The notes: generated by a model from the letters alone, not told the origin. A stretch of DNA of 64,000 nucleotides from Candidatus Brocadiia bacterium (GCA_050015075.1 JBEKCB010000025.1:18820-82819), one strand, 5' to 3'. Numbered from the stretch's first letter, positions 7,162-45,730 are shown. A program made the numbers and translations.

Positions 7162-7297
7162 CTGGCCATCCGGGTCCTCCGGTAAACCGCACCGGCTACT
7201 CTTTCCCATCAGGCGCGCGAGGGCCGCGCGTGGGCGTATCTTTTTACGAATGGCGGAGAAACCACTTGAAAGTAATCAGGCTTATGTCCCCGGCATT
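7162..7297 (+). repeat. Recurrent att-like element (CTGGCCA core plus CAGGCGCGCGAGGGCCGCGCGTGGGC box)
   Basis: Similar to 7996-8130, 41209-41290, 42949-43030 and 43931-44020; core-to-box distance is 48 bp in all five. Confidence 0.75.
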
Positions 7298-7451
7298 TGG
7301 GGCGTGAAACTGGGCTCAGCCGGTCAATGGTCAATAGGATCAGATGCGGTGAATGACGCTTTGACCCATGAGTTCGCCATTCCCGCGGCTTGACTTGCCG
7401 TGCTTACTAGTGTATTCTAAACGTAGCTATACGAATACAGGAGGACAAGCG

Positions 7452-7691
7452 ATGTCCAGGATGGTGACGCTGCGGCTGGACGATCCCGCTTACCGGATGT
7501 TCCGGGCGATGGCGGAGCGGGAGAACCGGCCGCTGTCGAACTTCATCGAGACGGCTGCGATGCGTTTCGTCGAGGAGCACGGCCTCGTGGACGAATTCGA
7601 GATGGCCGAAATCCTCGGCAACGTGGAATTGAACCGCAGCCTGAAGCGAGGGCTGGCTGATGCCGTGAGGAAGCGGGGCCGCTTTGTCTAA
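7452..7691 (+). CDS. Ribbon-helix-helix antitoxin
   Basis: VTLRLDD...AERENRPLSNFI; GGAGGA RBS; overlaps the downstream toxin gene. Confidence 0.8.
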   Translation: MSRMVTLRLDDPAYRMFRAMAERENRPLSNFIETAAMRFVEEHGLVDEFEMAEILGNVELNRSLKRGLADAVRKRGRFV

Positions 7692-7965
7692 GTTCCGCAT
7701 CTTCAAGACGTCCGAATTTCAGAAGGCGCTCGCAAGATTGCCCGCCGCGCAGTCGGCATTCCTCGAGAACAAACTCAACGCGCATGTCTATCCCCAGTTT
7801 CGCCAGCAACCATACTTCGGGCCGAACATCAAGAAACTGCGGGGCTATTCGCCGGAGACTTGGCGCTACCGACTAGGGCGCTATCGGCTTTTCTATCTGG
7901 TTGACGGAGATGAACGGATCATCTACCTGCTCACGCTTGATGACCGCAAAGACGCGTATCGGTAA
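7684..7965 (+). CDS. RelE/ParE family type II toxin
   Basis: IKKLRG...WRYRLGRYRLFY...DDRKDAYR. Confidence 0.85.
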   Translation: MSKFRIFKTSEFQKALARLPAAQSAFLENKLNAHVYPQFRQQPYFGPNIKKLRGYSPETWRYRLGRYRLFYLVDGDERIIYLLTLDDRKDAYR

Positions 7966-7995
7966 GGCTCCGGTTTGTCGTAACGCCATCAATAG

Positions 7996-8130
7996 CTGGC
8001 CACATAGGTCCTACAGTAAACCAATTAGGTTACTTGTCCACATCAGGCGCGCGAGGGCCGCGCGTGGGCATATCTCTTTACGAACGGCTGAGAAACCACT
8101 TGAAAATAATCAGGTTTATGTCCGCGGAAT
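7996..8130 (+). repeat. Second copy of the att-like element
   Basis: 8042-8130 closely matches 7208-7296. Confidence 0.8.
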
Positions 8131-8201
8131 ACCCCAGAACAGCCGCAAAACTTTGAAAACAGACGCTGTAAGAGTACAATACTGTCGGCGCGAGGGGAAA
8201 G

Positions 8202-8468
8202 GTGGTGCCTGCCGTGGCGACATGTCCAAGAAAGTATGCCGGTGCATTTATACTCGCGATTTCCATTACCTATGTGATATCCTATTTTGCTGTTTCTCGA
8301 ATCTACATCGGCAACGACGAAGGGGAGAGAATAACGTTTCGCCTTTTCGACCATGAATGGGAACGAGAACTATGGAGCCCATTGGCTGGTCTTGAAAACG
8401 CGCTTAGACAAGGGGAATTCGAAGGGCATACGAGAAATGGAGCGTCGTTGCCGCCCGCGGCTGAATAA
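8202..8468 (+). CDS. Small membrane-anchored hypothetical protein
   Basis: N-terminal TM with TYVISY; lower GC. Confidence 0.5.
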   Translation: MVPAVATCPRKYAGAFILAISITYVISYFAVSRIYIGNDEGERITFRLFDHEWERELWSPLAGLENALRQGEFEGHTRNGASLPPAAE

Positions 8469-8724
8469 TCACAGGAGCATTCGCGCATTACAGGCGCGAA
8501 GTGCAGACGGCGATGTAACCGGCGTCAGAAGAGGACAGCGTAACACAATAATAGGTCACCGCCCCTTATTATTCGCCCCCTATTATTAAGGCTCCTCATT
8601 CCATTCAGCCGCGCGTGGGGTGCGCTTGGGCGCATCATTTTCCGGAATAGCCGGTACAAACTTGAGGCCGGCCATTTCGAGCGTATGATGTAGTGCTTGG
8701 GGCTGGCGTCTTGAGGGAGCGCAA

Positions 8725-9150
8725 ATGGGAAAAGGCTGGCGGGCGAAGCTAAAGAAGTGCACCGCCATCCTCCTTGTCGGCCTCATCACATATATAGCGT
8801 CTTACTGCTTTTTGTCCCTTCGCGGCCAGTATTGTTTTGAACAGTCTGGCCGGCTGCGATGGAATTATGCTCTTTCGGCTAGCGACATGATTGAATGGCG
8901 ACCGCCCTGCATGTACTATCATCACTATCTGGACATCTACGGCAAAGAAGCAGTCCGAGAGGATGACATGGGGATTATCTTCTCGCCCCTTCTGAGACTT
9001 GACCGCAGGTTCGTGCATAAGACGCGCAAGGTGTTGGACGAGGAGGAAACGCTGGGGAGAAAAAAGGGACAGGCCCGTTTTCAGTGCGCGCAGAAAACGG
9101 GGCCTGTCCCGAATAAAACCGGCATGATCGGCCAGGGCCGGGAAGAATAA
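8725..9150 (+). CDS. Membrane-anchored hypothetical protein
   Basis: GAGGGAG RBS; TM with TYIASY; C-terminus runs into a palindromic repeat (9062-9110). Confidence 0.6.
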   Translation: MGKGWRAKLKKCTAILLVGLITYIASYCFLSLRGQYCFEQSGRLRWNYALSASDMIEWRPPCMYYHHYLDIYGKEAVREDDMGIIFSPLLRLDRRFVHKTRKVLDEEETLGRKKGQARFQCAQKTGPVPNKTGMIGQGREE

Positions 9151-9633
9151 TTACTGCCTGGATTCCTTGTCTTTGTCTTTAGACTCCTTGCTGTCCTTGG
9201 AACCCTTTGCGGGCGCCTTTTCCACGGGATGGGCAGGCTTGCCGGCTTGTGGATGGCCTCCGGTCTTTTTGTATTCGGTTGCGTGCTGCACCTTAATCCG
9301 CTCGCCGGCCCTCCGGTTTTCTTCGACGTTGACGTAGCGGTGTTCCCGGATATTGACGGTGACGATATCGCGGACGAAGACGTCGTGCGTGTAGCGACGC
9401 CCCCCATAAAAGTAGAAGCCCCCGTACAAATAACAACCCGGCGGATACCCCGTGTCGTAGATGTACACTCTATCGTCCGGCGGCGGCTCGACGACTTCCA
9501 CGTCGCCCGTGACGACTACTGCCGGCGCGGGCGCGACGAAGCCCACCCGCGGCCCCTGAATCACGCAGCCGCCGCAAAGAAGTGAAATAAAACCACTAGC
9601 GGCGCAGGCCACGACGACGACCCTGGACTTCAT
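9151..9633 (-). CDS. Hypothetical lipoprotein
   Basis: AGGAG RBS; lipobox-like LCGGC; Tyr/Gly-rich core and charged tail. Confidence 0.7.
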   Translation of the reverse strand: MKSRVVVVACAASGFISLLCGGCVIQGPRVGFVAPAPAVVVTGDVEVVEPPPDDRVYIYDTGYPPGCYLYGGFYFYGGRRYTHDVFVRDIVTVNIREHRYVNVEENRRAGERIKVQHATEYKKTGGHPQAGKPAHPVEKAPAKGSKDSKESKDKDKESRQ

Positions 9634-9915
9634 GATAGCTTCTCCTTTTTTTCAGCTTAACCGGGACTCGCCCCAGGCCAGCCCGTTCCCCGACGGTCGG
9701 GCATGAAGTGTCGTATTGTGACGACTGAACTCACGCGTGTCAACCGGGGTTTCCCATTTGGCCGCGCCATGCGGGAAGGCCGCCTGATCTAATTCGAAGG
9801 ACACCATGCGCAGTTGCGGATGAACTTCGAACACCCAACATCGGACGTCCAACGCCCAAGTGCTCGCGCGACCCGTTCCGCTGACTTGGATGTTGGGCGT
9901 TCGTCCGTTCTTGCC

Positions 9916-9944
9916 TTGACAAGCGGGATTCCGGCGGGCAGAAT
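9916..9944 (+). promoter_or_regulatory. Shared sigma70-type promoter, copy 1
   Basis: TTGACA-agcgggattccggcggg-CAGAAT (17-bp spacer). Confidence 0.75.
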
Positions 9945-9991
9945 GCGGCTGTGTCGGGCTCATCCGAGGCGGAACAAAAAGGAGGAGTATT

Positions 9992-11590
9992 ATGTTCGGA
10001 AAGATTTTAGCGGTCGGTCTTTCTGCGGCGGCGGTGGCGGGCCTGGCGGCTCCGGCCTGGAGCCAGGAAAAGCCGGTCGTCATTTACACGCAGGCCAACG
10101 CGCCGGCGGCGCCGAAGCTCGACGACCTGCCGATGAAGGACAGCGTGTCGCAGTACGGCATGACCTGGACGTTCGAGAAGCCGGCGCGCGTCGGGCAATT
10201 CGTCAACGGGGACTTTTACGTCGTCGGGCCGGTGACGATCGCCGCGATTGCGCCCAAGCCTCTTTACGGCGCCGAGATTCCCGCCAACCAGCTTGACGCC
10301 AGGGACAAAGAACACCCGGTGAACGACCGCGTCCGCAACGGCTTCATGCTCAACCCGCCCGCCGCGCAGAAGATCTCCTATGACAGCGGCGTCCGGAACT
10401 GGTTCGCCCCGTCCCTGATCCAGAAGCTGCCGGTCTCCATGAAGCCGGGCGATTCGCTCGTCTCGACCATCAGCATGCCGCTCGGGCTGTCGCTGCGGGC
10501 CGCGATCGCCAACGGGCCGGAAGTCCGCGGCGACGAGGATGCCAGCCCCATCAAGGACGCCGCCGTGCTGACGTGCGTCGCCGATCCGCAACCGCCCGAC
10601 GCCTTCCGCCCGGCGTTCTGCGACCGCACTCAGAAAATCTACCTGGCGCGCAACCTGAAGCGCGAGCTGCTGCCCGACCTGGTCCGCCCCGGCGACACGT
10701 CCAAAATCACGGACTACATCCGCTACACCCAGCGCCCTTGGGTGAATACCTGCTTCTTCGGCTTCGAAGAGCCCGTGGAGAACATGCCGTGGTACGGCCG
10801 CGAGGTCGGCCGCGTCGTCGGCAACGCGGGGCTGCTGCTGTGCTCGAACTTCGCGGCGCAGCAGAAAGAACCGCTCCTCGACAATCTCGTCCAGGTCGGC
10901 ATTGACTACGGCGGCATGATCCGCGCCGGGCATCCCGGGTTTGCCGGCTTCGGCGGCCACGGCACCGGCCGAAAGTTCCCCATCGTCTTCGCCGGATTGC
11001 TCCTCGGCGACGAGGAACTCGCGAACATTAATAAATCATTCCCCAAAGCCGCCTTCAGCGAAGATGAGCAGACCGCCTACGGCGACTCCTGGACCGGCGC
11101 CAAGGTCGTCTTCACCGGGCACTCCGGCATTGACGTAGTCACCGGGATCGGCCGCGACTACGCGCGTGGTCCCGGCGCCTGGGGCCCCTACGAGCACACG
11201 CCGCCCACCACTTGGGGACCGGGCCAGAACACCAGCGAAGGGTACCGCCGCACGAGCACCACGAACGGCTGGGTCTCGGAGGCCCTGGTGCTCCGCTTGC
11301 TGCACGCCGAAAAGGCCTGGAACCACGATCCGTTCCTCGATTACGTGGATCGCTGGATGTACGAAAAAGACGACGACTTCATTCAGAAGATCAAGGCCGC
11401 CACCGGCGGGAACTTCGACCATGACTGGTCCAAGCAAGGGTTCGCCTGGCCCGACGACAACTTCGTCAACGAGATGTGGCATGAATATCGCGCGGGGCCG
11501 GGCATGCCGCCGACCAACGGCTGGACGAAGCAGCACGACGACTCCTATTACAAAAACGCCATCGCAAAAGAACTCAAGAGACCCAACTAA
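9992..11590 (+). CDS. Secreted protein of unknown function, paralog 1
   Basis: Signal peptide; AGGAGG RBS; collinear with 19826 and 29388 proteins. Confidence 0.9.
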   Translation: MFGKILAVGLSAAAVAGLAAPAWSQEKPVVIYTQANAPAAPKLDDLPMKDSVSQYGMTWTFEKPARVGQFVNGDFYVVGPVTIAAIAPKPLYGAEIPANQLDARDKEHPVNDRVRNGFMLNPPAAQKISYDSGVRNWFAPSLIQKLPVSMKPGDSLVSTISMPLGLSLRAAIANGPEVRGDEDASPIKDAAVLTCVADPQPPDAFRPAFCDRTQKIYLARNLKRELLPDLVRPGDTSKITDYIRYTQRPWVNTCFFGFEEPVENMPWYGREVGRVVGNAGLLLCSNFAAQQKEPLLDNLVQVGIDYGGMIRAGHPGFAGFGGHGTGRKFPIVFAGLLLGDEELANINKSFPKAAFSEDEQTAYGDSWTGAKVVFTGHSGIDVVTGIGRDYARGPGAWGPYEHTPPTTWGPGQNTSEGYRRTSTTNGWVSEALVLRLLHAEKAWNHDPFLDYVDRWMYEKDDDFIQKIKAATGGNFDHDWSKQGFAWPDDNFVNEMWHEYRAGPGMPPTNGWTKQHDDSYYKNAIAKELKRPN

Positions 11591-11665
11591 AGCGGCAGGT
11601 CAAACCGCCGCCGTGGCGCCGGGCGCAGGTCGAATTCGCGATGCCGGGTGATCGCCGGGTCGTTA

Positions 11666-14181: not shown

Positions 14182-14302
14182 ACTGACGGTTGTTATAAAA
14201 AATCCACTTGACGGCGGCGAGTTAGAGAGTAGAATCTACCTTTGAAGGCCGACTGTCCTTTGGAGCACGGTCACATAGGGAATTCCGGCGAGGGGGTCGC
14301 AC

Positions 14303-14701
14303 ATGCCAAAAATCCGGTGCGAGTGCAAACGCGTTCTGGCGTATCGTGAGGACCAGGCCGGCAAACGCGTCAAGTGTCCGGCGTGCTCCGCGAAGATCGT
14401 CCTGCCCGGCGTCGCACCGGCGAAGGCGGAACCGCCCGGCGCGGCCGAGGCTTCCGCCCTGCTCAGCCGGCGGTTGTCGGCGCAAGTCGCCGCCTTGACG
14501 CCGACCCTGGCGCCGCGGAAACAGCCGCCGCTCGCCGCGCAGCCGGGTCGGACGACTCCAGCGCACGTCATGCCGAAAGACACCTTGAATGTGGAGCCGG
14601 CGGACGCAGACATCCCGCTCGCAGGAGACGTGCCGACTTGGGGAAGCGGACCGCAGCCCGACGCGCCGTCGGCGGAGCCCGGTCCGCGCGCAACTCCGTG
14701 A
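14303..14701 (+). CDS. Zinc-ribbon N-terminal protein, possibly truncated
   Basis: IRCECKRVL...AGKRVKCPAC followed only by a Pro/Ala-rich linker. Confidence 0.55.
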   Translation: MPKIRCECKRVLAYREDQAGKRVKCPACSAKIVLPGVAPAKAEPPGAAEASALLSRRLSAQVAALTPTLAPRKQPPLAAQPGRTTPAHVMPKDTLNVEPADADIPLAGDVPTWGSGPQPDAPSAEPGPRATP

Positions 14702-14770
14702 GCGTCCGTTCGGATCGGCCGCGCCGCTGAGCCGCGGAAGGTTGCGATGCGGTACGCCGCCGCGCCCGCC

Positions 14771-15037
14771 TCAAACCTGCACGATGCAGGCGTATTGAGC
14801 GCAGCCTTGCTCGTCGAGCCAGCCGAACACCCGCGCCGTCTCATTCTGGATGCGGCCCCGGATGTCCTCGATGCCTTCCGGCAACTCGTCAACGCCCAAC
14901 TCGTACAAGTCCGCAGGCGTGACGTCATTGCGCATGGCGTCCAGCAGGTCGCTCTCATCGTCCCATGCTTCGGCGTCGGACTCGCCCGCCTGATACTCGC
15001 CCGCGTACGGCAGTATGCGACACTCCTTATACGCCAT
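14771..15037 (-). CDS. Acidic hypothetical protein
   Basis: GGAGGA RBS; 88 aa. Confidence 0.6.
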   Translation of the reverse strand: MAYKECRILPYAGEYQAGESDAEAWDDESDLLDAMRNDVTPADLYELGVDELPEGIEDIRGRIQNETARVFGWLDEQGCAQYACIVQV

Positions 15038-15092
15038 CTTTCGTCCTCCTCATACTCTCCCGATGCCTTAATAAAGCAGCCGCACTGCGCGC

Positions 15093-16205
15093 TCAGCGAG
15101 CATAGAGCCGTTGGATCAGTTCCTTCGGCTGCGTGCTCTGTTGAATCGCATCCTCACGCGAGATCTGCCCTTGCCGATACAGGTAAAGCAGAGAGGCGTT
15201 GAGCGTGGTCATGCCCTCTGCGTTGCCGCCCTCCATGGCCGCATAGAGCTGCTGTATCTCGCCGGTCCGGATGAGGTTTCGCACCGCCGGCGTTGCGACG
15301 AGGAGTTCCATCGCCATCACGCGCCCCGGCTGGTCGCGCCGGCGCATGAGCCCCTGCGCCATGATCCCGGCCAGAACGAAAGACAACTGGGACCGGGCCA
15401 GGAGCTGCTGCTGGGGCGGATACGAATCAATGATGCGGTTCGCCGTCTGGATGGCGTCGGTCGTGTGAAGGGTCGAGAGCACCAGGTGCCCTGTTTCGGC
15501 CAGCGTCATGGCCATCTGAATGGTCTCGAGGTCCCGCAACTCGCCTACGAGTATGACATCGGGGTCCTGCCGCAGCACGCGCCGCAGCGCCTGGGCGAAG
15601 GACCGCGTGTCCTGGTTCATCTCGCGCTGGCTGATCAGCGCTCTCTTGTGTTTGTGCAGGAACTCGATCGGGTCCTCAATCGTGATGATGTTGCAGGACC
15701 TGCGCTCGTTGATCCAGTCCAACATGGCCGCGAGCGTCGTGGACTTGCCGCTGCCGGTGGGACCGGTGACCAGGAAGAGGCCGTGCTCCATCATGGCGAA
15801 CTTTTCCAGTTGCTTCGGCAGTCCCAGCTCCGCAAAGGTGGCGATGTGCTCGGGAATGAGCCGCAGCGCTATGGCCACCGAATCGCGCTGCCAGTAGAGG
15901 TTGGCCCGGAATCGCGCCAGGCCCGGGCGCGATACGGAGAAGTCCAGGTCGCGCTCCGCCACGAACTGTTCCCACTGCGCCTTGCTGGTCAACTCCTGAC
16001 CGGCCGCGGAGGTCTGCGCGGGCGACATGGGCGGCAATCCCTCCACCGCGACCATGTCTCCGTGAATGCGCATAATGGGGGCCTGGCCGGCCACCAGATG
16101 AATGTCGGACGCCTTCTTGCCGACAGCGTCGCGCATCAGGTCTTCGATGCGGATCGTTGCCTGCTCTTCGGCGTTCTGTGTCGCGATCATCTCCCTTGTC
16201 TCCAC
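15093..16205 (-). CDS. pilT: Type IV pilus retraction ATPase PilT
   Basis: GPTGSGKSTT, TIEDPIE, LRQDPDVILVGELRD, AETGHLVLSTLH, AVRNLIR. Confidence 0.92.
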   Translation of the reverse strand: METREMIATQNAEEQATIRIEDLMRDAVGKKASDIHLVAGQAPIMRIHGDMVAVEGLPPMSPAQTSAAGQELTSKAQWEQFVAERDLDFSVSRPGLARFRANLYWQRDSVAIALRLIPEHIATFAELGLPKQLEKFAMMEHGLFLVTGPTGSGKSTTLAAMLDWINERRSCNIITIEDPIEFLHKHKRALISQREMNQDTRSFAQALRRVLRQDPDVILVGELRDLETIQMAMTLAETGHLVLSTLHTTDAIQTANRIIDSYPPQQQLLARSQLSFVLAGIMAQGLMRRRDQPGRVMAMELLVATPAVRNLIRTGEIQQLYAAMEGGNAEGMTTLNASLLYLYRQGQISREDAIQQSTQPKELIQRLYAR

Positions 16206-16211
16206 AGGCCG

Positions 16212-17426: not shown

Positions 17427-17579
17427 CGTGCGATGGCCCTTTCAGTCATGCGCGAGACTCCGGGGAGGAACGCTGCCTCAAGATTATCGAGGGATTTGCT
17501 GGAGAATTTAGCCGTCCGTCACGCCACCAGCGGAGAGGTGCGTCGGTCCAGCGCCCTTAGTTTGCCGCGCAGCGTCCTC

Positions 17580-17609
17580 TTGACAAGCAGGATTCTGAGG
17601 GTCAGAATC
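17580..17609 (+). promoter_or_regulatory. Shared promoter, copy 2, with perfect palindrome GATTCTGA-GGG-TCAGAATC
   Basis: TTGACA-N17-CAGAAT. Confidence 0.75.
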
Positions 17610-17683
17610 CGACAGTTGACGGCTGACCACAATATGGACGGCTTGCCCGCCGGTCGTGTGGCGGGTCGCGCGAAAGGCGGCAT

Positions 17684-18715: not shown

Positions 18716-18789
18716 CAATGCCGCCGCAGATGGTCGGCCGTGCACAATACCGGTTCTTTCTTGACGCTGGTGCGGAGCCGTGGTACGGT

Positions 18790-19528: not shown

Positions 19529-19758
19529 GAGCAAATCGCAAATGTAGATTCGCTGGGGATTCGCTGGGGACAGAATACCAGTTATTTCCTTCCTTAATAA
19601 TTGCCGCAACGTCTGCAGGATTCCCATGCCGGCCCGGAGCGCGAGGGCGACGCATGGGCGCGCCGTTTTCCAAAACAACGCGCTGAAGCCGGCCACGGCC
19701 TTGTCGCCGCAGTGCGGACGGCCGGAATTGAGGCCTTCGTCCGCCGTGCGACCTCTCC

Positions 19759-19787
19759 TTGACAAGCGGGATTCGGACGGTCAGAAT
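19759..19787 (+). promoter_or_regulatory. Shared promoter, copy 3
   Basis: TTGACA-agcgggattcggacggt-CAGAAT. Confidence 0.75.
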
Positions 19788-19825
19788 GCGGCATCGGTTG
19801 GCTGCCCTTGAAATGGAGGAACATC

Positions 19826-21442: not shown

Positions 21443-21445
21443 CCT

Positions 21446-21922: not shown

Positions 21923-21923
21923 C

Positions 21924-22028: not shown

Positions 22029-22051
22029 ATCTTTCGCCGCGCGACTTTTCC

Positions 22052-33946: not shown

Positions 33947-34049
33947 GCCTCCCAGGGCCAACGCCTGCCGGCCTTTTTCCCACGCGCTCCGAACTTGTGA
34001 GTTCCGGGGCGAGTTCCAGAACTCCCCGCGGCGTCTGCAGCCGCTCCTG

Positions 34050-35231: not shown

Positions 35232-35382
35232 GGATTTTCCCTTTCATTGCGGAGCATGAAAGGCATTAATGTAATCGCAGAAGGGAGAACCTGTCAAAGG
35301 CCGCGCCGACCCGCAGCCGCGCCTCCATCAGCTTTCGGCCGCGCCGTCCACTTTGCAGAACTTCCGGATCAGGCGCGCGCTC

Positions 35383-35528
35383 CTAGTGCTTCCTTGCGGA
35401 AATAGGCGTCCTATTTCCGCAAGGAAGCATGACGGCAATAAACCGCGTCGTTATACCGAGTTATGAGTTCCGTTGGGCCATGTTTAGTTGCGTAAATTGG
35501 TACGCCAATTTACGCAACTAAACACTAG
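35383..35528. mobile_element. MITE-like element with a perfect 20-bp-arm hairpin at each end
   Basis: Hairpins 35387-35429 and 35481-35524; outer ends CTAGTG...CACTAG; the two hairpins resemble each other. Confidence 0.6.
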
Positions 35529-36880: not shown

Positions 36881-37243
36881 GAACCTTATCCCCAATCCAC
36901 AATTTTCCACGCGCCTGGCGGTTCACGCCCACCGTGAACCTGCTGGCTGGTATCATCCGGAATTTGCCAGAGCGTCGCCTTCCACGCGACAGCCAGGCAT
37001 CCCAGCCGTATTTTGACAACCAGGGTCACCGCAATCAAGCAAGTCTTCTGCGGAGTCCGGCAGGACTTCCGGAGTTCGGCCGGAGTTCGAGTTCCGGTTT
37101 GCTGCGGACCGGTCCGCTTCTCCCCAGTCCTGGAACCCTGTACAAGACCTGTAGCCCGCCGAAAATTTCCCTGACATACGGGTGGACTCGGTCCACGGGC
37201 TTAAGAGGGACAAGCCCGTTTCCACGCGAGAGGTGCAGTAAAC

Positions 37244-37417
37244 TGTTGAGTATCCTGAACACGGCGAATATCGTCCTGAGGAGATTTCTCAACACAGGAT
37301 CCCCACTTTGGCGAAACAGATTGGGCATTCTTCTGGTCGTAAGATACGAGAAGTAATGCGATTAGGCCTGAATGTGGAGATTCTGAAACTGGGTGTATAG
37401 GCGGCACGGCGATTGCT
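37244..37417 (+). promoter_or_regulatory. sigma54-type promoter with enhancer-like site
   Basis: CGGCACGGCGATTGCT at 37402-37417; TGTTGAG-N7-AACAC at 37244-37262, the same motif as at 11698-11716. Confidence 0.65.
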
Positions 37418-37473
37418 GTGCTTCACGCGCATATTACAAGATCGTTTATGCTATTCTTTTTGGAGGGATGCGT

Positions 37474-38157
37474 ATGCCTAGTCTGCGCCGAGGTGTTCTG
37501 GCTGTCGCGTTCGTGGCGGCGCTTCTCGGCCTCTTGGCGAGCAACGCCGTTGCCGTTGTCATCGCGGACCAGCCGTGGGATGGGACGTCGCAGGCTGTCG
37601 TCGCACAAGTTTTTCCCGACAACCCAACCTTTTCAACGTACCAGTTCGACAATTTCGCGACCGGCGTTCCGTACGACATAACAACCCTGACGATCTACGG
37701 CGATGAGCTGGGCGACCCTACGGGCAACGTGGCCGTGACCGGGGAAATCTGGACGAACCTTCCGGACAAGGGCGGCACGCTCGTGATGAGCGGCACCGGA
37801 ACCGAGGATGCGAGCCATAATCTCGACATCAGCTTCGCCGACCAACTCCTTGGCCCGGGCAGCTACTTCGTCACCGCCTACGTGACCCGACCCATCTCGA
37901 GCGGACAGTGGTTCTGGTATCAGACAACTCCGGTTAATGCTCCGGAGGAATACTTCTATAACCCCGGCGGCGGGTTTGGCGCGGGTACCAGTTCGATTCC
38001 GGCTTCTGAATTCTTTGGTGGATCGCCGGCCGATATGGCCTTTACCCTCGACGGCGACACCGCCGGCGCGTTCGTCCCCGAGCCGGCGACGATGACGTTG
38101 CTCGGCCTCGGCCTGACAGGACTCGTCGCAAAAGTCGCAAGGCGGAGGAATCGGTAG
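37474..38157 (+). CDS. PEP-CTERM protein
   Basis: Signal peptide; VPEPATMTLLGLGLTGLVAKVARRRNR. Confidence 0.9.
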   Translation: MPSLRRGVLAVAFVAALLGLLASNAVAVVIADQPWDGTSQAVVAQVFPDNPTFSTYQFDNFATGVPYDITTLTIYGDELGDPTGNVAVTGEIWTNLPDKGGTLVMSGTGTEDASHNLDISFADQLLGPGSYFVTAYVTRPISSGQWFWYQTTPVNAPEEYFYNPGGGFGAGTSSIPASEFFGGSPADMAFTLDGDTAGAFVPEPATMTLLGLGLTGLVAKVARRRNR

Positions 38158-38195
38158 TCCGGCGATCCGTGCAGTCTTCTCGCCGCTCTGTTTCT

Positions 38196-38231
38196 AAAGA
38201 AGCGCTCCTTTCGGGGAGCGCTTCTTTTTTT
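38196..38231 (+). terminator. Rho-independent terminator
   Basis: AAAGAAGCGCTCC-TTTCGG-GGAGCGCTTCTTTTTTT. Confidence 0.85.
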
Positions 38232-38471
38232 GGCGCGCGCCGGCGCATCGTTTTCCAGAACACCGAGAACGCAGTTGACTGCCGGCACTTTAAGCGTAGA
38301 ATCTCACTTTCGAATGCGGACTGTCCTCCGGCGGACGGGCAAGGCAAACCCCGGCTGATGTCCGACCGTTCGGGCAGTGCGGCGATATGGAAAACTCCGG
38401 GTAAAATCATGGCAACTCCCGGTGGCGGTTGTCGCCGCGGAATCTTGAGGAGAAGCGCAATAAAGGCGATA

Positions 38472-39350
38472 GTGCCCGTCAAATCGGCTTGTGCGGTCCT
38501 GGCGATGGTGTGGATGTGCTCCGCCGCAGCCCCGGCCGCCGACACGGCGCCGGCGGTCGGCGCACAACCTGCCGTCACCCCGCAGCCGGAGTTGCGGCCG
38601 GGACGGACCTTCGCCATCCAGTTCCCCGAACTGCCGCCGACCTTTGAGGAACTGGTGGATGCCAAGGGCATCCAGCCGCAGATGACGGTCTTTCTGCCCA
38701 GGAACTACGACCCCGCCCGCAAGCACCCGCTGCTGATTTTCCTCAACGGCGGCGCCGGCGGGCGCGGGGGTAATCCCGGTGTAGCCCGCGGGCTGACCGG
38801 GGAGATGGACTTCATCTGTTTGAGCCTGCCGCTGTTCCATAAGCTCGCCCCGGGTTCCGCCGGCTACGATTTCCTCATTCGCGATACCGACGGCAAGTAC
38901 ATGTGGCCGCTCCACAAGCGGATGCTGGCGGAACTGGAACGGATCGTGCCCAACATTGATCCGGGCCGCCGGATCATCGGCGGCTTCTCCAACGGCGCCC
39001 ACGCTACGCAGGCGATGATCGAGCAATCGGACGGCGAGGCGGCCCGCATGTTCTCGGCATTTCTTTTCGTCAACGGCGGCGGGCGGATGGGGCGGTATGA
39101 CCTGATCAAGAACAAGCCGCTGCTGATTGCCTATGGCGGCGCCGCCCTCCGCCCGCAGCGGCTGGCGGAGATCGTCGCAGCGGCCCAGGCCGGCGGCGTG
39201 GAGCTGACCACGTACGAGATGAAGGATATCGGCCACGCCTTTCCCGAGTCGGAGTACCCGGCCGTGCGCAAGTGGCTCTTCGGGCCGGCGATCGGCCTGC
39301 CGACGCCGGCGACTTCTTCCCGGCCGCCGCCAGGGCCGGCCGGTCCGTAG
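38472..39350 (+). CDS. Secreted alpha/beta hydrolase (esterase-like)
   Basis: GGFSNGA nucleophile elbow; GHAF; start codon uncertain. Confidence 0.75.
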   Translation: MPVKSACAVLAMVWMCSAAAPAADTAPAVGAQPAVTPQPELRPGRTFAIQFPELPPTFEELVDAKGIQPQMTVFLPRNYDPARKHPLLIFLNGGAGGRGGNPGVARGLTGEMDFICLSLPLFHKLAPGSAGYDFLIRDTDGKYMWPLHKRMLAELERIVPNIDPGRRIIGGFSNGAHATQAMIEQSDGEAARMFSAFLFVNGGGRMGRYDLIKNKPLLIAYGGAALRPQRLAEIVAAAQAGGVELTTYEMKDIGHAFPESEYPAVRKWLFGPAIGLPTPATSSRPPPGPAGP

Positions 39351-39430
39351 GGCGACGGCGCGGGGCCGCGGCTTCTGCGCGCCGGCGACGGAGACAATCC
39401 GGTCTCAGAATTCCCCGGGATGGATTTTCC

Positions 39431-40936
39431 ATGGCTCAACGAACCCTTTGCTGCGCGGCCGCCCTCCTTCTCACAGTCGTTCTCAAAGTTGCAGGCGCCG
39501 ATCTGTCGCCGGCGGCCGGGGAAGTGTCGGTCAGGGTCGCCGAGCCCGCCATGAATGAGGTCTTCGCTGAAGGCGCGACGATGACGCTCATCGCCGAAGC
39601 AAGCGCCCCGCCGGGGCGGATCGCTAAAGTGGAATTCTACAACAACGATCAGCTCATCGGCGTCAGTGCGACGGCGCCCTACCAGCTCTCATACGGCCGC
39701 GGCGGTCTGTTGCCAGGCAACTACAGCATCCACGCCAAGGCGTACGACGACCGGGGCCGATCGGCCGTTTCTCCGGCGGTCACGGTCACGGCCAGGCGCC
39801 GCGCTCAGTGGACGGCCAGGAGCTACGACTATGAGGAAACGAACGAAGGGGCGCTCAAGCAGGCGCGCCTCACCATTCCCGACGGGCTTGGCGTAGTGCG
39901 CGGAGTCCTGGTCTTTTCCAACGCAGCCGGCGGCGACACGCGAGAGGCCTGGAAGCAAAGCTGGTGCCGGGAGTTCCTTTATATGCACGACTTCGCCTTT
40001 CTCGGCACCAAGGCGTTCAACTCGCATTCTGAAACCTTGATCGTCTTCCACAACGCCCTCCGGCAGTTTGCCGGGGACAGCGGCCACCGGGAGATCGAGT
40101 CGGCGCCCTTCGCCATCTTCGGCTTCTCCGCCGGCGCCGGGTTTGCCATGACGCTCCTGGACGACAGGCCCGATCGCGTGATCGCCTGCGCGGCGGTATC
40201 GGCAAGGAACGTCAGGATGGACTCCAACGATGCCGTGGCTGCCACGCCTCTTTGCCTGATCTCCGGAGAGATGGAGACAACCCTGAACGCATGGATCGTG
40301 CCCCTGATGGAAGCGAGCCGGCCGAAAGGCGCGCTCTTCTCATGGATGAGCGTCCAGGGCTTTGCCCACCGGTTCGCGGGGCAACAGGTGCTTGCGATTC
40401 CCTTGCTCGATCAAGCCATTCGCCTGCGGTATCCCGTCGGCCAGGACCCGCTCAAGGGCCCGGTCCAGCTCTTGCCGGTTGATCCCAGGAACGGCTGGAT
40501 AGCGGATCACACGACCTGGAAAAGCGGGCTGACAACGATCACTCCTTATGCGGACTTCAAAGGCCCTCTGGGCACGTCCAGTTGGCTTTTGAATAAGGAC
40601 ATTGCCTTCATCTACCGGGCCTTCGCCACCTATGACAACCCGTTGAAGATCACATCCCTGCCGCCAACCACCGGCGAGCCGCCGGTCCTTGATCCCGGCG
40701 CGCGCCTGACTCTGCTCGTTGACGACAGCGCCTTCCCCCACTGGCGGAGCATGGAGTTCTTCGCGGGCGCGCAGAAGCTGGGCGAAGCGCATGCGCCCCC
40801 GGCCCGGTTCACCGTGTCCGACCTCAAGACAGGGGTCTATGCGTTCACCGTCCTGGCGACGGACGCCAAGGGGATCGCAAGGACGTCGAATCCGGCGCTG
40901 GTTCTCGTGCGAAAACTGCCGAAAGAAGCGCCGTGA
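39431..40936 (+). CDS. Secreted Ig-like domain plus alpha/beta hydrolase protein
   Basis: IAKVEFY...APY...GNYSIHAKAYDD Ig-like domain; GFSAGA; second Ig-like domain at the C-terminus. Confidence 0.75.
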   Translation: MAQRTLCCAAALLLTVVLKVAGADLSPAAGEVSVRVAEPAMNEVFAEGATMTLIAEASAPPGRIAKVEFYNNDQLIGVSATAPYQLSYGRGGLLPGNYSIHAKAYDDRGRSAVSPAVTVTARRRAQWTARSYDYEETNEGALKQARLTIPDGLGVVRGVLVFSNAAGGDTREAWKQSWCREFLYMHDFAFLGTKAFNSHSETLIVFHNALRQFAGDSGHREIESAPFAIFGFSAGAGFAMTLLDDRPDRVIACAAVSARNVRMDSNDAVAATPLCLISGEMETTLNAWIVPLMEASRPKGALFSWMSVQGFAHRFAGQQVLAIPLLDQAIRLRYPVGQDPLKGPVQLLPVDPRNGWIADHTTWKSGLTTITPYADFKGPLGTSSWLLNKDIAFIYRAFATYDNPLKITSLPPTTGEPPVLDPGARLTLLVDDSAFPHWRSMEFFAGAQKLGEAHAPPARFTVSDLKTGVYAFTVLATDAKGIARTSNPALVLVRKLPKEAP

Positions 40937-41095
40937 GAGACAGGCGGGCCGGTCCGCGAGTTCCGGCAAAGCACAACCTGTCCTCGCGACGGTCGCCTCG
41001 CCTTCGCCAGGTCCGTTTTCACATCCGCAAGTGCCGGTCGTTGCGACAAGCAGACGATCCCCAACCCGAAGTCTGCGACGACCGTATACGGATAA

Positions 41096-41196
41096 ACATC
41101 GAACGCTCAACATCGAACTTCCAACGCCCAAGTATTTCCGCGCTCGGAGCCGAGGGACTTGGACGTTGGGCGTTTGGCGTTGGATGTTGGGCGTTC
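41096..41196. repeat. Inverted heptamer-repeat element (AACATCG/AACGCTC-type); related copy at 9822-9902
   Basis: AACATCG AACGCTC AACATCG ... mirrored by GGACGTT GGGCGTT GGATGTT. Confidence 0.6.
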
Positions 41197-41206
41197 ATCC
41201 GTTCAC

Positions 41207-41384
41207 GGCTGGCCAAATAAGTCCTAGGACAAACCGATCCGGCGCCTCTTTCCAATCAGCCGCGCGAGGGCCGCGCGTGGGCGTACCTACTATAGAACAA
41301 CGGCTTACGCGCTTTTTCACCGACAACTCCCCGGAATACCACGCGCGAATTTCGCTTGACAAGCGGGATTCTCGCGGGCAGAAT
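41207..41384 (+). repeat. Complete att-like element: core, box and shared promoter copy 6 (41356-41384)
   Basis: GGCTGGCCA at 41207; box at 41257; TTGACA-N17-CAGAAT. Confidence 0.75.
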
Positions 41385-41484
41385 CCGATGTTTGATGACT
41401 GACCATCGTGTGGGCGGCGGCCATCTGGCAAATCCCGAACCACCTATTATTCGCCCCTGCTGCAGGGACAGGAGGGCAACTCAG

Positions 41485-42834
41485 ATGCTCAAGATCGAAT
41501 TCTGTGCTGCGGCGGTTTTCGCGGCGCTGGTCGCAACGGCCGCTCGCGGCGGCGAAGAGAAGAGCGTTCTCCCGCGCTCGGACAACGCGGCCATCCTGTA
41601 TCTGGAGGGCGCTGCGACACGAGCAGTCCCGCAATCGGCGGGGGAACTGGAAGCGCTCAAGTTCATGGACGAGGAGTTCGGCAAGCTGCCGCCCGCCGCG
41701 CTGAGCGACAGACCCGACGCCGTGGCCCTGCTCTCGCGCGACCTGGATTCCGACGGCGCCATGAGCCTGCTTCACGACGGCGCCCAACGGGGACCCTGCG
41801 CCTTCGACCTGAACTGGGATGCCGGCCCCGATATGGAAATGCCGCATCTCGGGCTTTTGAGGCTGTTCGCGTTCCGCTGCGTCGCGGCGGCCAAGTGCGC
41901 GGAGTTCCGAGGCGATCCCGTTCGCGCCGCCGAAATCTGCGGGGACCTCGCTCGGATGGGCGCGCACGTCGGCCGGGAGCCGGTCCTCATGTCCGGCCTC
42001 GTCGCGGCGCTAATTCAGAATGTGGCCGCGTCCGAGGCGGAGGGCTTGCTCTCGCGCAGTCCGGGCCGCGAGTCCGTGGAGAAACTGCTCCGGGCGCTCC
42101 AGAGCCTGCCCGAGCCGCTCAGGATGGATTCCTACTGCCGCGTCGACGCCGAATTCTGGGGAGAATGGGTCATTCGCAAGGCCCAAGCGCCTGAGAAGGA
42201 ACTAATGGACTTCATCCGGGATTACCTGCACGGCGAGGGTCCCCCTTCGAAAATGGCGACTCATGAGCTGGAAGGCCTGAAGGAGCCGGAAATCAGGGCT
42301 CGTATCCTTGAATGGGCACGCGGCTACCAGCAGCACATGCGACGGTTGGCCAGAAATGTCGCCGGCCCCTACCATGAGGCAGCGCCGGCCATCACGGATG
42401 AAGAGCGCGGACTGAATAACACGATTCTTGAAATGACGTCCCGTGAGCTCCAGGGGGATCGGGACTTAGGGAACCCACTCCTGCAGATCTTCGTGCCGGC
42501 GTTGACAGTCAGCGCCCTGCCCTCTCTCGCCAATGCCGAGGCCCGGATCGGGATGATGCGCGTGTTGTGCGCCGCGATGCTGCTGAAAGAGGAGACCGGC
42601 AGCTATCCGGCGAACCTCGAGGAGCTTCGCCGCTACTTCCCCGATGGCTTTCCCAAAGACCCGTTCACGGGCAAAGACTACACGCTATCCATGAGCGGCG
42701 GCCTTCCCGCCGTAAGCTGCGGCGCGCCGGAGGAGGTCAGGAAGAAATCGCCGAATGACTTCTCGTTTGACCTCGCGCGACAGCGCAGACTGGACGCCGA
42801 AGCCTTGAAGAATTTCCGGGGCCACGCGAGGTAA
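41485..42834 (+). CDS. Secreted helical hypothetical protein
   Basis: GGAGGG RBS; signal peptide; DNAAILY...YPANLEEL...KDPFTG, similar to a domain of the M56 protein. Confidence 0.8.
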   Translation: MLKIEFCAAAVFAALVATAARGGEEKSVLPRSDNAAILYLEGAATRAVPQSAGELEALKFMDEEFGKLPPAALSDRPDAVALLSRDLDSDGAMSLLHDGAQRGPCAFDLNWDAGPDMEMPHLGLLRLFAFRCVAAAKCAEFRGDPVRAAEICGDLARMGAHVGREPVLMSGLVAALIQNVAASEAEGLLSRSPGRESVEKLLRALQSLPEPLRMDSYCRVDAEFWGEWVIRKAQAPEKELMDFIRDYLHGEGPPSKMATHELEGLKEPEIRARILEWARGYQQHMRRLARNVAGPYHEAAPAITDEERGLNNTILEMTSRELQGDRDLGNPLLQIFVPALTVSALPSLANAEARIGMMRVLCAAMLLKEETGSYPANLEELRRYFPDGFPKDPFTGKDYTLSMSGGLPAVSCGAPEEVRKKSPNDFSFDLARQRRLDAEALKNFRGHAR

Positions 42835-43203
42835 GACTCAGAGCCAACCAAGCCCGCCCGCGAAGACGCGAAAGATCTCCGGGGGATTCGCTGGGGAAAT
42901 AATACCAATTATTTCCTGCCCAGCGGGGCATATGATCTGGTCGTTTGGCTGGCCATACCATACCTACAGCAAACCGCTCCGGCTCCTGGTGCCCTTCAGC
43001 CGTGTCAAAATGGCACACGGACGCATCGGTTTCCATAGCAAGGGCACGCTGCAATTCACCTGACAAATGACTCCGACGGATTGAACCGCCAGGACGCCAA
43101 GAGGGCTAGGGCCCTGGTTGACGCTTCTATGCGTCGAGCGTAGAATGCCAGCTCTACGAGGAAGCGCTCGTGGAGAGACGGTCAATGCAGGAGCCCGACG
43201 GAA

Positions 43204-43842
43204 ATGATCAGAGTCGGTGGCGCACGAATCGGTTGGGTTAACGCTACCTGGCCGTTTGCAATACTGACTGTACAACGGGATCGGCTTGTGTTGAACGCCA
43301 CGCTGATCGGCAAGTACTCTTTTTGTCCCGACCAGGTTGTGGGGATTGAAAGGTACTCAATCATACCCTTTCTTGGCTGGGGCATCAGGATTCAACACAA
43401 CGTCTCGACCTACCCCAAGAGGATAGTCTACTGGTGTTTCGGCAGTCCCGCTTCGCTTCTCCGAAGAATCCGAGAAAGCGGATTTGTCCCCACGGCATGC
43501 CCGGATTCGGTTCCGGCTGGACGGGGGCTACCCGTCAGATGGCAGGCAATCGTGGCAATGGTCCTTTTGTGGAACGGCTTGTGCTTCTTAGACATGTACA
43601 CCGTTCTAGGCCGGCTCGCCTGGCAAGCGACGTGGAAGCCAGGGATTTTTGCTCTCCTCGCGCTGCTCTTTGTGTTCGCGGGTTCGCTCGCAATATGGCG
43701 GTCTCGCGTCCTGCAACACTTGATCCTAAGACCGGGGCACAGTTGCAGCGAGATTAAGGCATGGCTCTACCTGCTTGCCGAGGTTTCGTGCGGCCTGGTT
43801 ATATTCTTCACCTACTTTTCGTTTGTTGGTCGCAATCAGTAA
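43204..43842 (+). CDS. Hypothetical membrane protein
   Basis: Three C-terminal TM helices; TTGACG-N17-TAGAAT at 43118-43146; lower GC. Confidence 0.65.
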   Translation: MIRVGGARIGWVNATWPFAILTVQRDRLVLNATLIGKYSFCPDQVVGIERYSIIPFLGWGIRIQHNVSTYPKRIVYWCFGSPASLLRRIRESGFVPTACPDSVPAGRGLPVRWQAIVAMVLLWNGLCFLDMYTVLGRLAWQATWKPGIFALLALLFVFAGSLAIWRSRVLQHLILRPGHSCSEIKAWLYLLAEVSCGLVIFFTYFSFVGRNQ

Positions 43843-43930
43843 CGCCCCTCGTGAGTTCCGCGGACGCACGACTTATCCGTACGTCCGTCTTGCAGCCGCT
43901 ACAACAACTGGGTTCGACCGGAGAGAGACG

Positions 43931-44107
43931 TTGGCCAAATAGGTCCTACGCCGAACCACTCAGGATTCTCGTCCCAATCAGGCGCGCGAGGGGCGCGCAC
44001 GGGCGTATCGTCTTACAGGACGGGGGTTTACGCGCCTGCTGATAGACAACACTCAGGAGAGCCGCGTGCAACTTCCGCTTGACAGGCGGGCTTCTGATGG
44101 TCAAAAT
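43931..44107 (+). repeat. att-like element plus shared promoter copy 7 (44079-44107)
   Basis: TTGGCCA at 43931; box at 43979; TTGACA-ggcgggcttctgatggt-CAAAAT. Confidence 0.7.
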
Positions 44108-44157
44108 CCTAGAGCGGACCGCAAGCACAATTGAACAAAGGGGAGATGAGAAGGAAC

Positions 44158-45657
44158 ATGATGAACCGGATTGCCGCTTGCGCGGCGGTCGTACTGAGCT
44201 TGCTGGCGACAACATCCTGCCGTCCTGCCAGGTACAAGGTTCAAGAGACTCGGCTCGGGCCTTGCGACAAGAGTGTGGACTTGGCCTATATTGCAGCCTT
44301 TTCCAGGGATAGCTCTCATCTGGCGTACTTTCTTAGACATGGCGCAAAGGTTCGTGTCGTCGCCGACGGCCGGCCGGACACGGAGTACGATGAGATCGCT
44401 GAGGGAAGTCTGACATTCAGTCCCGATGGCGGACGGCTGGCTTATGCGGCCAGGACGGGCTCTAAGTGGTTCGCCGTCGTGGACGGTCAAACGAGTGTGG
44501 GATACGACAAGATTGGACCGAGGCATGGGATACACTTCTTCGCCGTTCAATTCAGCCCCGATGGCAAGCGCGTTGCGTATGTGGCGCAGAAGGGTGAGAA
44601 GTCGTTGATGGTGGTGGATGGCCAAGCAGGCCCGGAATATGACGATGTCGGTTACCAACAATTCAGCCCCGACAGTAATCACGTGGCATATGCGGCCAGC
44701 AAGGGGCAAAAGTGGACCGTGGTGGAGGACGGCCAACCGGGCGCAGAGTACGACGGAATCGGTTTTGGCTACATGGTGACGTTCAGCAACGACGGCAAAC
44801 ACCTGGCGTACACTGCTCGAAAGGATAAGAAGGTTATTGCTGTAGTTGACGGTCGCCCTGCCGTGGAGTACGACGAAATCCTTTACGATGACCTGACCTT
44901 TAGCCCCGACAGCAAGCACATAACCTATGCAGCCAAGAAGGACGGGAAGTGGTTTGTGGTTGTGGATGGCCAGCCAGGCTTGGAATACGACAAAGTTTCT
45001 GTTCCTGTCTTCAGCACGGACGGCAAGCGGATGGCATATGTGGCCGACAAAGGCGGAAAGAGCCGGCTTGTTATGGACGGCAAGCCGGGCGCAGAGTACA
45101 ACCATGTTGACCGGCCATTCTTCAGCCCTGATGGCGAACGCTTCGCTTACGCGGCCACAAGGGGAACAAAGAGCTTCGCCGTCGTGGACAATCGAGCGGA
45201 CACGGAATATGACAAAGTTGCGGTTCTAGCACCCTTCAGCCCTGACAGTAAGCATGTGGCGTATGTGGCCAAGAAGGGCGAGAAGTGGACTGCCGTGGTT
45301 GATGGCATTCCATCAGTCGAATATGACCAAATAAACTTTGCTCCCACCTTTAGCCCCGATAGCAAGCGCATTGCGTATGAAGTCAAAAGTGGGGAGAAGT
45401 GGTTTGAGGTGGTAGACGGCAAAGTGAGCGCGGAATGCAGCTACGATTTGGGGCCTGCTTTCAGTCAGGACAGCAGGCACATTATGTACCTGGACGATAA
45501 AGGCGCGAAGTGCTCACTGGTGCTGGATGGTCAGCCTGGCGCTGAGTATGACAAGATACTCGTGGCCGATTGTGCTTTCGGCCGCGACGACAATGTGGAA
45601 TTTCTCGGGATCAGCGAGAATTCCCTCTACCGCGTGAAATACATCCCGGCACCGTGA
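44158..45657 (+). CDS. TolB/PD40-like beta-propeller repeat lipoprotein
   Basis: About 11 repeats of FSPDxKxxAYxA..G.KW..VVDG....EYD; lipobox-like TTSC. Confidence 0.8.
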   Translation: MMNRIAACAAVVLSLLATTSCRPARYKVQETRLGPCDKSVDLAYIAAFSRDSSHLAYFLRHGAKVRVVADGRPDTEYDEIAEGSLTFSPDGGRLAYAARTGSKWFAVVDGQTSVGYDKIGPRHGIHFFAVQFSPDGKRVAYVAQKGEKSLMVVDGQAGPEYDDVGYQQFSPDSNHVAYAASKGQKWTVVEDGQPGAEYDGIGFGYMVTFSNDGKHLAYTARKDKKVIAVVDGRPAVEYDEILYDDLTFSPDSKHITYAAKKDGKWFVVVDGQPGLEYDKVSVPVFSTDGKRMAYVADKGGKSRLVMDGKPGAEYNHVDRPFFSPDGERFAYAATRGTKSFAVVDNRADTEYDKVAVLAPFSPDSKHVAYVAKKGEKWTAVVDGIPSVEYDQINFAPTFSPDSKRIAYEVKSGEKWFEVVDGKVSAECSYDLGPAFSQDSRHIMYLDDKGAKCSLVLDGQPGAEYDKILVADCAFGRDDNVEFLGISENSLYRVKYIPAP

Positions 45658-45683
45658 GGCTGGTTTACTGTAACGCATAAAAC

Positions 45684-45730
45684 GGCTGGCCATCCAGGAC
45701 TCGAACCTGAAACGCCTAATCCAGCGTCAG
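45684..45730 (-). pseudogene. Degenerate 3' half of tRNA-Gln(CTG), probable att scar
   Basis: Minus strand reads CTGA-CGCTGGA-TTAG (anticodon arm, CTG), TCAGG-TTCGAGT-CCTGG (T arm), ATGGCCA-GCC; no matching 5' acceptor strand or D arm. Confidence 0.6.

Follow-up and report, generated by a model that had tools for sequence, protein, structure and literature searches.

Here we describe a 64,000-nucleotide stretch of DNA (the window; positions 18820-82819 of contig C25) from the genome of a Candidatus Brocadiia bacterium, in which copies of a repeat family, named E, separate small groups of genes and probably represent attachment (att) junctions of elements inserted by a large serine recombinase (LSR). 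The conserved part of E extends from a (C/T)TGGCCA core through a GC-rich hairpin box. The genome (G000; 4.64 Mb in 66 contigs) is compared with that of a sister species (G001), the only other genome of the genus; both are incomplete metagenome-assembled genomes (MAGs), with a completeness of 94% and 91%, respectively.

Repeat arrays and tRNA-Gln fragments

The features of the arrays, with the remnants of E found elsewhere in the window, are given below (FRAG, tRNA-Gln-like fragment; ORF, open reading frame; RHH, ribbon-helix-helix).

7162..7296, plus strand: E copy 1, with core, putative P'-type half-site, GC hairpin box and conserved downstream part (profile E-value 4e-25)
7453..7965, plus strand: cargo, RHH antitoxin (ORF 7368-7691, likely start 7453; PF01402) and ParE-family toxin (7684-7965; PF05016)
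7952..7995, plus strand: remnant of the last ~15 LSR codons, left flank type i, with putative P-type half-site GGTTTGTCGTAAC (P0013, LSR protein and DNA alignments)
7996..8130, plus strand: E copy 2 (profile E-value 1e-25)
8587..8645, plus strand: partial E, box and downstream part, core absent (profile positions 42-100, E-value 1.6e-8)
19616..19810, plus strand: degenerate E, weak box and clear promoter-side part (repeat families and profile, E-value 0.08)
9913-9967, 17577-17631, 22049-22103 and 29307-29361: promoter-side remnants resembling that of 19616..19810
41100..41205, no strand assigned: long palindromic repeat that serves as left flank (type ii) of E copy 3 and is also found ahead of further copies of E and FRAG
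41209..41420, plus strand: E copy 3, full-length type B, with a promoter-like TTGACAAGCGGGATTC..CAGAAT at 41353-41385
41356..42834, plus strand: cargo ORF listed at 492 aa, true start probably ~41486, no Pfam family, not found in G001
42949..43037, plus strand: E copy 4, diverged (profile E-value 1.4e-20)
43204..43842, plus strand: cargo ORF of 212 aa, no Pfam family
43931..44125, plus strand: E copy 5, promoter-like part at 44076-44106, left flank type iv (E-value 3e-24)
44131..45657, plus strand: cargo, PD40/WD40-like beta-propeller protein of 508 aa (Pfam)
45662..45686, plus strand: second remnant of the LSR gene 3' end, left flank type i
45683..45737, minus strand: FRAG, a tRNA-Gln(CTG) fragment truncated at its 5' end, at which the array closes; orthology with G001 begins at 45687

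The five core and box pairs named by a first-pass annotation of the window all proved to belong to one 85-nt family (61-100% identity in a repeat search of the window): cores start at 7162, 7996, 41209, 42949 and 43931, and the box follows 48 nt on, start to start, being exact at 7210, 8044, 41257 and 43979 and diverged at 42997. A profile built from these five copies recovers them at E-values of 1e-20 to 1e-25. Taken alone, the 14-mer box is weakly above chance (12 occurrences with two mismatches against 6.45 expected, a count reached by 4 of 100 shuffles). Among the partial boxes proposed in the same annotation, the one near 8606 is borne out by the profile, the one near 19636 is marginal and the one near 29231 (E-value 8.1) lacks significance. 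Everything from 7162 to 45730 had also been joined into a single array. We find two short arrays instead, at 7162-~9120 and 41209-45692, since the region ~9121-33944 is largely collinear with G001, contains no full copy of core plus box and holds degenerate promoter-side remnants only. The statement that the window encodes no recombinase stands: a Pfam search found no recombinase domain among its 47 ORFs.

Copies of E follow a common layout, in which the core is succeeded by the box, which is a GC hairpin, and for many of them by a TTGACA-16/17-TAGAAT-like motif. Type B copies are ~250 nt long and end in the TTGACAAGCGGGATTC..CAGAAT module, which also occurs alone at 9913, 17577, 19756, 22049 and 29307. 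Conserved columns comprise the core, the hairpin and, at ~20-25 nt from the centre, an AAACC. Pairing in the box helix is 89%, with a double change in 5 of its 7 pairs, and in the diverged copy 4 the hairpin is preserved by changes on both arms (CCGTGT..ACACGG). A second proposed helix is 51% paired, and whole-structure covariation exceeds that of shuffled data by a modest margin (the observed values are reached in 14 to 18 of 500 shuffles); covariation thus lends weak support to one hairpin, that of the box. An Rfam search of the window gave no match to E. The idea that E is a whole antisense tRNA was rejected: aligned to the reverse-complemented tRNA-Gln, the consensus scored 12, below the shuffled mean of 16.6, no tRNA model matched in 41000-46000, and the likeness to tRNA is limited to the first 9-18 nt.

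Genome-wide, the profile detects 34 E copies on 18 contigs of G000 (E-value <= 1.6e-6), often in runs, such as five copies on C32, three each on C8 and C9, and six on the contig of the window. With genes called by a crude method based on GC content at third codon positions, 25 of the 34 are co-oriented with the next gene; several stand solitary beside ordinary genes (an ABC permease, glycosyltransferases, an amidase). By BLAST against 41 related genomes, E is present in G000 and G001 alone, and the E array is a feature specific to the genus; exact-pattern scans of wider genome contigs returned 0 loci and 1 locus and are uninformative beyond it.

The tRNA-Gln remnant reported near 45684 is real. 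The tRNA-Gln(CTG) of the genome, which we located intact at C6:148851-148924, matches the minus strand of window positions 45692-45737 over 46 nt with 89% identity (BLAST, E-value 6e-8). ARAGORN found no tRNA in the window and the Rfam model RF00005 gave no match at an E-value <= 10 in 41000-46000; the sequence is a fragment only, not a recognised cloverleaf. A fuzzy T-arm search of G000 returned 12 matches, namely the real tRNA-Gln, two tRNA-Val, one probable chance match and eight FRAG (on C1, C3, C8, C18, C21, C25, C32 and C33). Seven of these eight sit 1.1-5.1 kb downstream of a same-strand E, for which our own rough chance estimate is ~2%, and the arrays can therefore be written as [E-gene(s)]n-FRAG. 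The same layout is seen in G001, where 6 of 7 fragments have a same-strand E upstream, a count biased by the choice of the fetched loci, ten of which were picked for holding E. The T-arm pattern occurs five times each in G000 and G001 versus 0-2 times in the other 39 genomes. The derivation of the sites from tRNA-Gln, proposed at the outset, is upheld, as is the clustering of elements in FRAG-ended arrays as opposed to an even scatter.

Some further observations concern the surroundings of cores and fragments. A GC-rich long palindrome (GGACGTTGGGCGTT... paired with ...AACGCCCAAG) recurs to the left of cores, at 41100-41205, at 9820-9905 and ahead of the FRAG copies of C8 and C33; at 9900 it runs straight into the promoter module, the core and box being missing. 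A ~25-nt motif (...GAGCGAAGCGAGTCGAA) lies directly 3' of several different tRNA genes (C6:148922-148949, C6:124225-124250, C15:4153-4180 and C26:62117-62140) and, in one E copy (C9:61590), stands ahead of the core as well. In G001, a second tRNA-Gln-like fragment (G001:C14:23770-23799; L036:7771-7800) lies where the first variable segment ends on the right, directly before a terminator-like hairpin; the window has the hairpin (~9040-9070) without the fragment. URO-D-like genes (PF01208), of which tblastn finds at least 21 paralogues, are directly beside E four times (window 5889-7094, C4:206386-207477, C17:33-647 and C32:60677-61870), and another, at C6:149051-150043, sits 127 nt from the real tRNA-Gln(CTG); placement beside E or tRNA-Gln is ~10 times our own estimate for random placement.

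The core and the large serine recombinase gene

The copies of E had been noted to translate into a conserved peptide, and translation of 35 gap-free copies in the W-P frame agrees: 32 are open, with the consensus WPxRSxxKPLRLLxPIRRARGARGRIxxQNx. Searched against 1.84e9 (1.84 billion) representative proteins, a profile of these 32 translations gave 18 matches, in most of which the peptide lies at the extreme C-terminus; many of the 18 evidently read across repeats. In P0004, the 84 residues before the E peptide match the C-termini of P0019, P0020 and P0021 at 80-93%. These three are LSRs of 425-540 aa, all with the Resolvase (PF00239), Recombinase (PF07508) and Zn-ribbon (PF13408) domains. P0020 ends in ...FLGKAPVCRNALNG (...RNALNG) and P0021 in ...FLGKSPVYRNALDG (...RNALDG), both directly before the core. 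P0019 continues past the core as ...DGWPFGTRTW, which is the antisense tRNA arm, and P0004 continues into E. The left flank GGTTT-N4-TAACGC, rightly described as common to 7972-8002 and 45662-45692, is coding sequence of the LSR endings seen in P0020 and P0021. The first-pass annotation had proposed testing the peptide for a tie to a recombinase C-terminus. Peptide and flank both have such a tie: the class is LSR, and the gene runs into the att core.

Remnants of this gene adjoin cores elsewhere in G000. With P0019 as the query, tblastn detects 51 aa at 67% identity adjoining a core beside a FRAG (C1:198472-198320, E-value 3e-13), 28 aa beside E at C9:60264-60347, and 17 aa at window 7952-8002, and DNA alignment places 25-70 nt of the LSR 3' end before the cores at window 7996 and 45684 and before cores on C1, C9 and C4. 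The window and G000 hold only 3' remnants of a P0019-type LSR. An intact relative is carried by a metagenome contig (L058), where a 540-aa LSR (7049-8671) that is 94% identical to P0019 is followed by the core and preceded by cargo made of restriction/defence genes (GmrSD, a helicase and an Eco57I-type methylase). On another metagenome contig (L059), an LSR end is followed by a 26-nt tRNA scrap. The layout of an LSR gene running into a tRNA is native to the organism, since the two intact LSR genes of G000 end inside tRNA-Ala and tRNA-Met. Because the flank consists of the last LSR codons and intact relatives end at the core, the cassettes are best read as LSR-less derivatives.

E as a stand-alone gene was rejected. 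An open W-P frame is present in 35 of 41 copies, with third positions slightly more variable than the others (entropy 0.85 against 0.67 and 0.61). Stops are found in 3 of 35 translated copies, ATGs lie in differing frames, and the diverged copy preserves the hairpin and not the residues. On these grounds the peptide seems to be a relic of the LSR tail and not a gene.

The geometry of the sites may be compared with that of known serine integrases. The core ATGGC-TG-GCCAT (ATGGCYRGCCAT) is a near-palindrome, and flank type i and E both carry TACGACAAACC, mirrored ~15-25 bp from the central TG. When the left arms were tested without gaps for mirroring the right arm given by E, 8 of the 37 reached the 99th percentile of 5000 random arms (at least 10 matches over 17 positions). 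Window 7996 has the highest score (12 of 17), and the signal is driven by flank type i. Sites of serine integrases consist of 25-bp half-sites around a central dinucleotide, with conserved motifs to ~25 bp (PMC3783163). The spacing of the motifs in E and flank fits such half-sites, a fit noticed after the fact. Relative to the tRNA fragment, E has its distal AACC displaced outwards by 5 bp. Read post hoc, this is reminiscent of the zinc-ribbon motif, whose position is reported to differ by 5 bp between attP and attB (PMC3783163).

Breakpoints between sister species

The window is collinear with G001:C14 at 16-3422, 9121-11613, 14278-18723, ~19759-24809, 31065-33944 and from 45687 onwards, and the main differences, 3422-9121 and 33944-45687, are where the E copies lie. 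At the right end homology resumes at the T of TGGCCA (45687), the cargo and flanks to the left of it differing between the genomes. The same core breakpoint is found when the fragment on C8 (C8:149463) is set against G001:C138, and a third ortholog pair (C3 with G001:C118, L039) also breaks at the core, as judged by reading. At three loci, then, orthologous right sides meet unrelated left sides at the core. None of the three cassettes in 41209-45657 was found in G001, and cargo turnover between the species is high. The expectation that strain differences would break at the core is therefore borne out by three ortholog comparisons and fails for several common genes, which break inside E or just past their stop codons.

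Strictly empty orthologous sites were not found in the comparisons with G001, and neither a circular junction nor a clean empty site was seen in assembled read contigs (90% likeness); mobilisation in trans is for this reason something that we infer. One read contig (X13, side 24) joins 43888 to 45687, which would fit an allele without the last cassette and is too weak to count. A joint from 45649 to 44145 appears in one read contig, and that from 43945 to 41262 corresponds to another E copy.

Origin of the arrays

We consider it likely that the repeats are att junctions of LSR elements that target a tRNA-Gln-like sequence and that the cassettes are LSR-less tandem derivatives of such elements. 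In this scheme the LSR would use the 3' end of a tRNA-Gln(CTG)-like sequence as the insertion target for integrative elements, which in complete form would consist of E (providing a P' half-site and an inward promoter), followed by cargo and then by the LSR gene, whose last codons would hold the P half-site and run into the core, with exchange presumably at or beside the central TG. In this genus, sites would then have accumulated from one to five small recombinase-less derivatives, each made of E, one to few genes and a short right-end flank, some still with LSR codons, and the resulting array would read [flank-core-E-cargo]n-flank-core-tRNA fragment. The making of the junctions by an LSR and the exact position of crossover within them are inferred, the mini-elements may still be movable in trans, and the change of the LSR tail between states may have a function.

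Several observations weigh against this reading. Searches for the cognate LSR gave nothing close in G000, where the best match, at 40% identity, is the enzyme of the tRNA-Ala element, and nothing at an E-value <= 1e-20 in G001, a 91% complete MAG. Type-i flanks alone appear identifiable as LSR remnants. The gapped inverted-repeat test of site arms placed 0 of 28 above the 99th percentile. LSRs normally recombine attP with attB only (PMC3783163), and given this selectivity the internal attP-like junctions of a tandem array need an extra explanation. The E copies are diverged (mean column identity of 78%), so many of them may be fossils, and tRNA-Gln fragments occur in at least eight unrelated unique contexts. 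Some of the cargo common to both species does not fit either. The toxin-antitoxin pair (7405-7961) recurs inverted, 83% identical, inside an array cassette of G001. For a 453-aa gene common to G001, 92% identity begins in the promoter part of E and extends ~15 nt beyond the stop codon, the stretch of E from core to box ahead of the gene is far less similar (roughly 60% by eye), and G001 has no E after it. A second common block breaks inside a gene, with neither E nor FRAG at the junction in G001.

Alternatively, the arrays would be fossil scars only: the LSR elements would have decayed, and the cargo would later have been shuffled by homologous recombination and gene conversion between E repeats of 100-250 nt, without site-specific movement of cassettes. 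Breakpoints of common cargo inside E or just past stop codons, together with ~60% identity from core to box against 92% over the cargo, form the pattern that gene conversion would give, and the divergence of the copies and the lack of a cognate LSR in both assemblies agree with decay. However, the sequence common to E and the tRNA fragments is only ~9-18 nt long, which does not suffice for RecA-type exchange, and orthologous breakpoints lie exactly there; near-identical LSR genes (94%) are also present in metagenome contigs. We regard this account as possible, if doubtful; it overlaps with our preferred explanation, having the same origin and denying present activity only.

The preferred explanation, of junctions left by an LSR, could also be carried further. 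The arrays would then be a serine-recombinase counterpart of the integron, in which many tRNA-Gln-derived pads kept by the genus receive promoter-equipped cassettes of one or two genes that are captured, stacked and exchanged by an LSR, with autonomous elements of a rarer kind supplying the enzyme in trans. Since the last LSR codons contain the att core, the C-terminal tail of the enzyme would differ between a free element and elements integrated at one core variant or another, and this change of tail might serve as a switch of stability or activity. We put this forward as a rather unlikely, speculative extension.

An ordinary dispersed intergenic repeat, either a mobile promoter or similar to a miniature inverted-repeat transposable element (MITE) or a repetitive extragenic palindrome, which spreads or is retained for a regulatory role, with arrays and tRNA scraps being incidental, is improbable. 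It would account for 34 copies on 18 contigs with several solitary beside ordinary genes, for the TTGACA-16/17-TAGAAT-like motif at the downstream end of E and for promoter-only remnants before three paralogous genes, and promoter reuse has been described (PMC3575422). Nevertheless, terminal inverted repeats, the mark of a MITE, join the ends of E in none of the four window copies tested, and no target-site duplication was seen at the edges of the window copies. The left edge of E is the CCA end of a tRNA-like sequence, LSR remnants adjoin the core, 7 of 8 FRAG close an E array, and orthology breaks at the core. Finally, a chromosomal integron or an integrase-less attC cluster (CALIN) is hardly credible here. 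Small cassettes with a common orientation, whose products include a toxin-antitoxin pair and numerous proteins without known function, and a conserved hairpin per repeat (89% of cells paired) do recall one. However, G000 has no IntI above the cut-off (TIGR02249, best 85.1 bits versus 265), the consensus fold of 41 copies (RNAalifold, -2.2 kcal/mol) contains 5 weak pairs and no long imperfect palindrome, attC being judged by structure and position, the repeat lies upstream (5') of the cargo with its own promoter-like motif, and the linked recombinase is a serine and not a tyrosine enzyme.

Among known systems, the closest kinds are the composite islands of staphylococcal cassette chromosome (SCC) elements and the accretion of cis-mobilizable elements (CIMEs). 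The LSRs of SCC insert at the 3' end of a conserved gene, and tandem elements, some without a recombinase, are split by att repeats (10.1101/336396, PMC13739063). By layout, the arrays resemble composite islands with pseudo-SCC elements in presumed insertion by an LSR, tandem stacking and repeated att sequences. Recombinase-less SCC elements are moved in trans by CcrAB. Unlike SCC, the target here is tRNA-Gln-like and not rlmH, at least eight sites exist per genome versus one, the units are far smaller (~0.8-5 kb), each has a conserved arm with a promoter-like motif, and the LSR gene runs into the core. CIMEs of Streptococcus are att-bounded non-autonomous elements that accumulate at the site of an autonomous element and could be moved by its recombinase; the arrays would share this accretion, whereas CIMEs have tyrosine integrases, conjugative partners, a single locus and far larger units.

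Phage LSR systems (A118/LI, phiC31 and Bxb1) have the same combination of Resolvase, Recombinase and Zn-ribbon, and their pseudo-palindromic site with a central dinucleotide may have a counterpart in the core and its arms. Their targets are usually protein-coding genes, and unlike them the present sites form tandem arrays with internal attP-like junctions. No directionality factor came to light, no search aimed at one having been made. Integrons are similar in outline, with co-oriented one-gene cassettes, a structured repeat between them, toxin-antitoxin genes and unknowns, and a recombinase acting in trans (here presumed). They differ in that the arrays lack IntI, attI and attC, have the repeat 5' of the cargo with its own promoter-like motif, would use serine chemistry and occupy many loci instead of one platform. 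In SSV-type integrases and in the integration-dependent immunity of mycobacteriophages, attP lies in the gene and the C-terminus is swapped on integration; comparably, the LSR tail here is either a TGA stop in a true tRNA acceptor sequence, a tRNA-derived tail or a 35-aa E tail.

LSR stacking of recombinase-less elements is best known from SCCmec, at one locus in one pathogen genus. A similar logic is seen here in an uncultured peat planctomycete, with three differences: at least eight pseudo-tRNA sites per genome, units reduced to single genes, and a conserved promoter-like arm on each unit. If the cassettes still move, they would represent integron-like gene capture on a different chemistry and offer natural LSR att sites with defined half-sites. 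The arrays account for contig breaks and hypervariable segments in the genus, and they look like an unusual route for a peat bacterium to store accessory genes. The succession of E, cargo, LSR codon remnant, core and tRNA scrap is a signature that can be sought in other MAGs.

Recombinase searches of G000 gave 7 tyrosine, 3 serine and 2 Y1-transposase matches. All of them lie away from E arrays, the closest approach being that of a Y1 gene to a solitary E on C44, at 3 kb. Flank type iv gave no protein match in a search with a lengthened query.

Other parts of the window show features of their own. Three paralogous genes of ~540 aa, without a Pfam family (9992-11590, 19808-21442 and 29310-30989), each stand behind a TTGACAAGCGGGATTC..CAGAAT module, and G001 has at least five more paralogues. 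Direct repeats of 157 nt, 85% alike, at 16-172 and 3265-3421 bracket a 3.1-kb segment with a terminase-like gene (228-1913, PF17289) and a DUF1804 gene; this repeat has many copies in G001, and the end of its second copy is the left edge (3422) of the first variable segment. A ~150-nt repeat at 35383-35540, with more than 40 copies in G001 at 87-94% identity, has ends that match on opposite strands and is MITE-like, with ~45-nt inverted ends. The segment 24896-29148, which encodes a BlaR1-like M56 protein (1267 aa) and a BlaI-like repressor, has no match in the collinear stretch of G001:C14. Within a 918-aa ORF (22099-24855), 16 tandem repeats of 114 nt (38 codons) occupy 22421-24547, and the G001 ortholog differs in their register or number.

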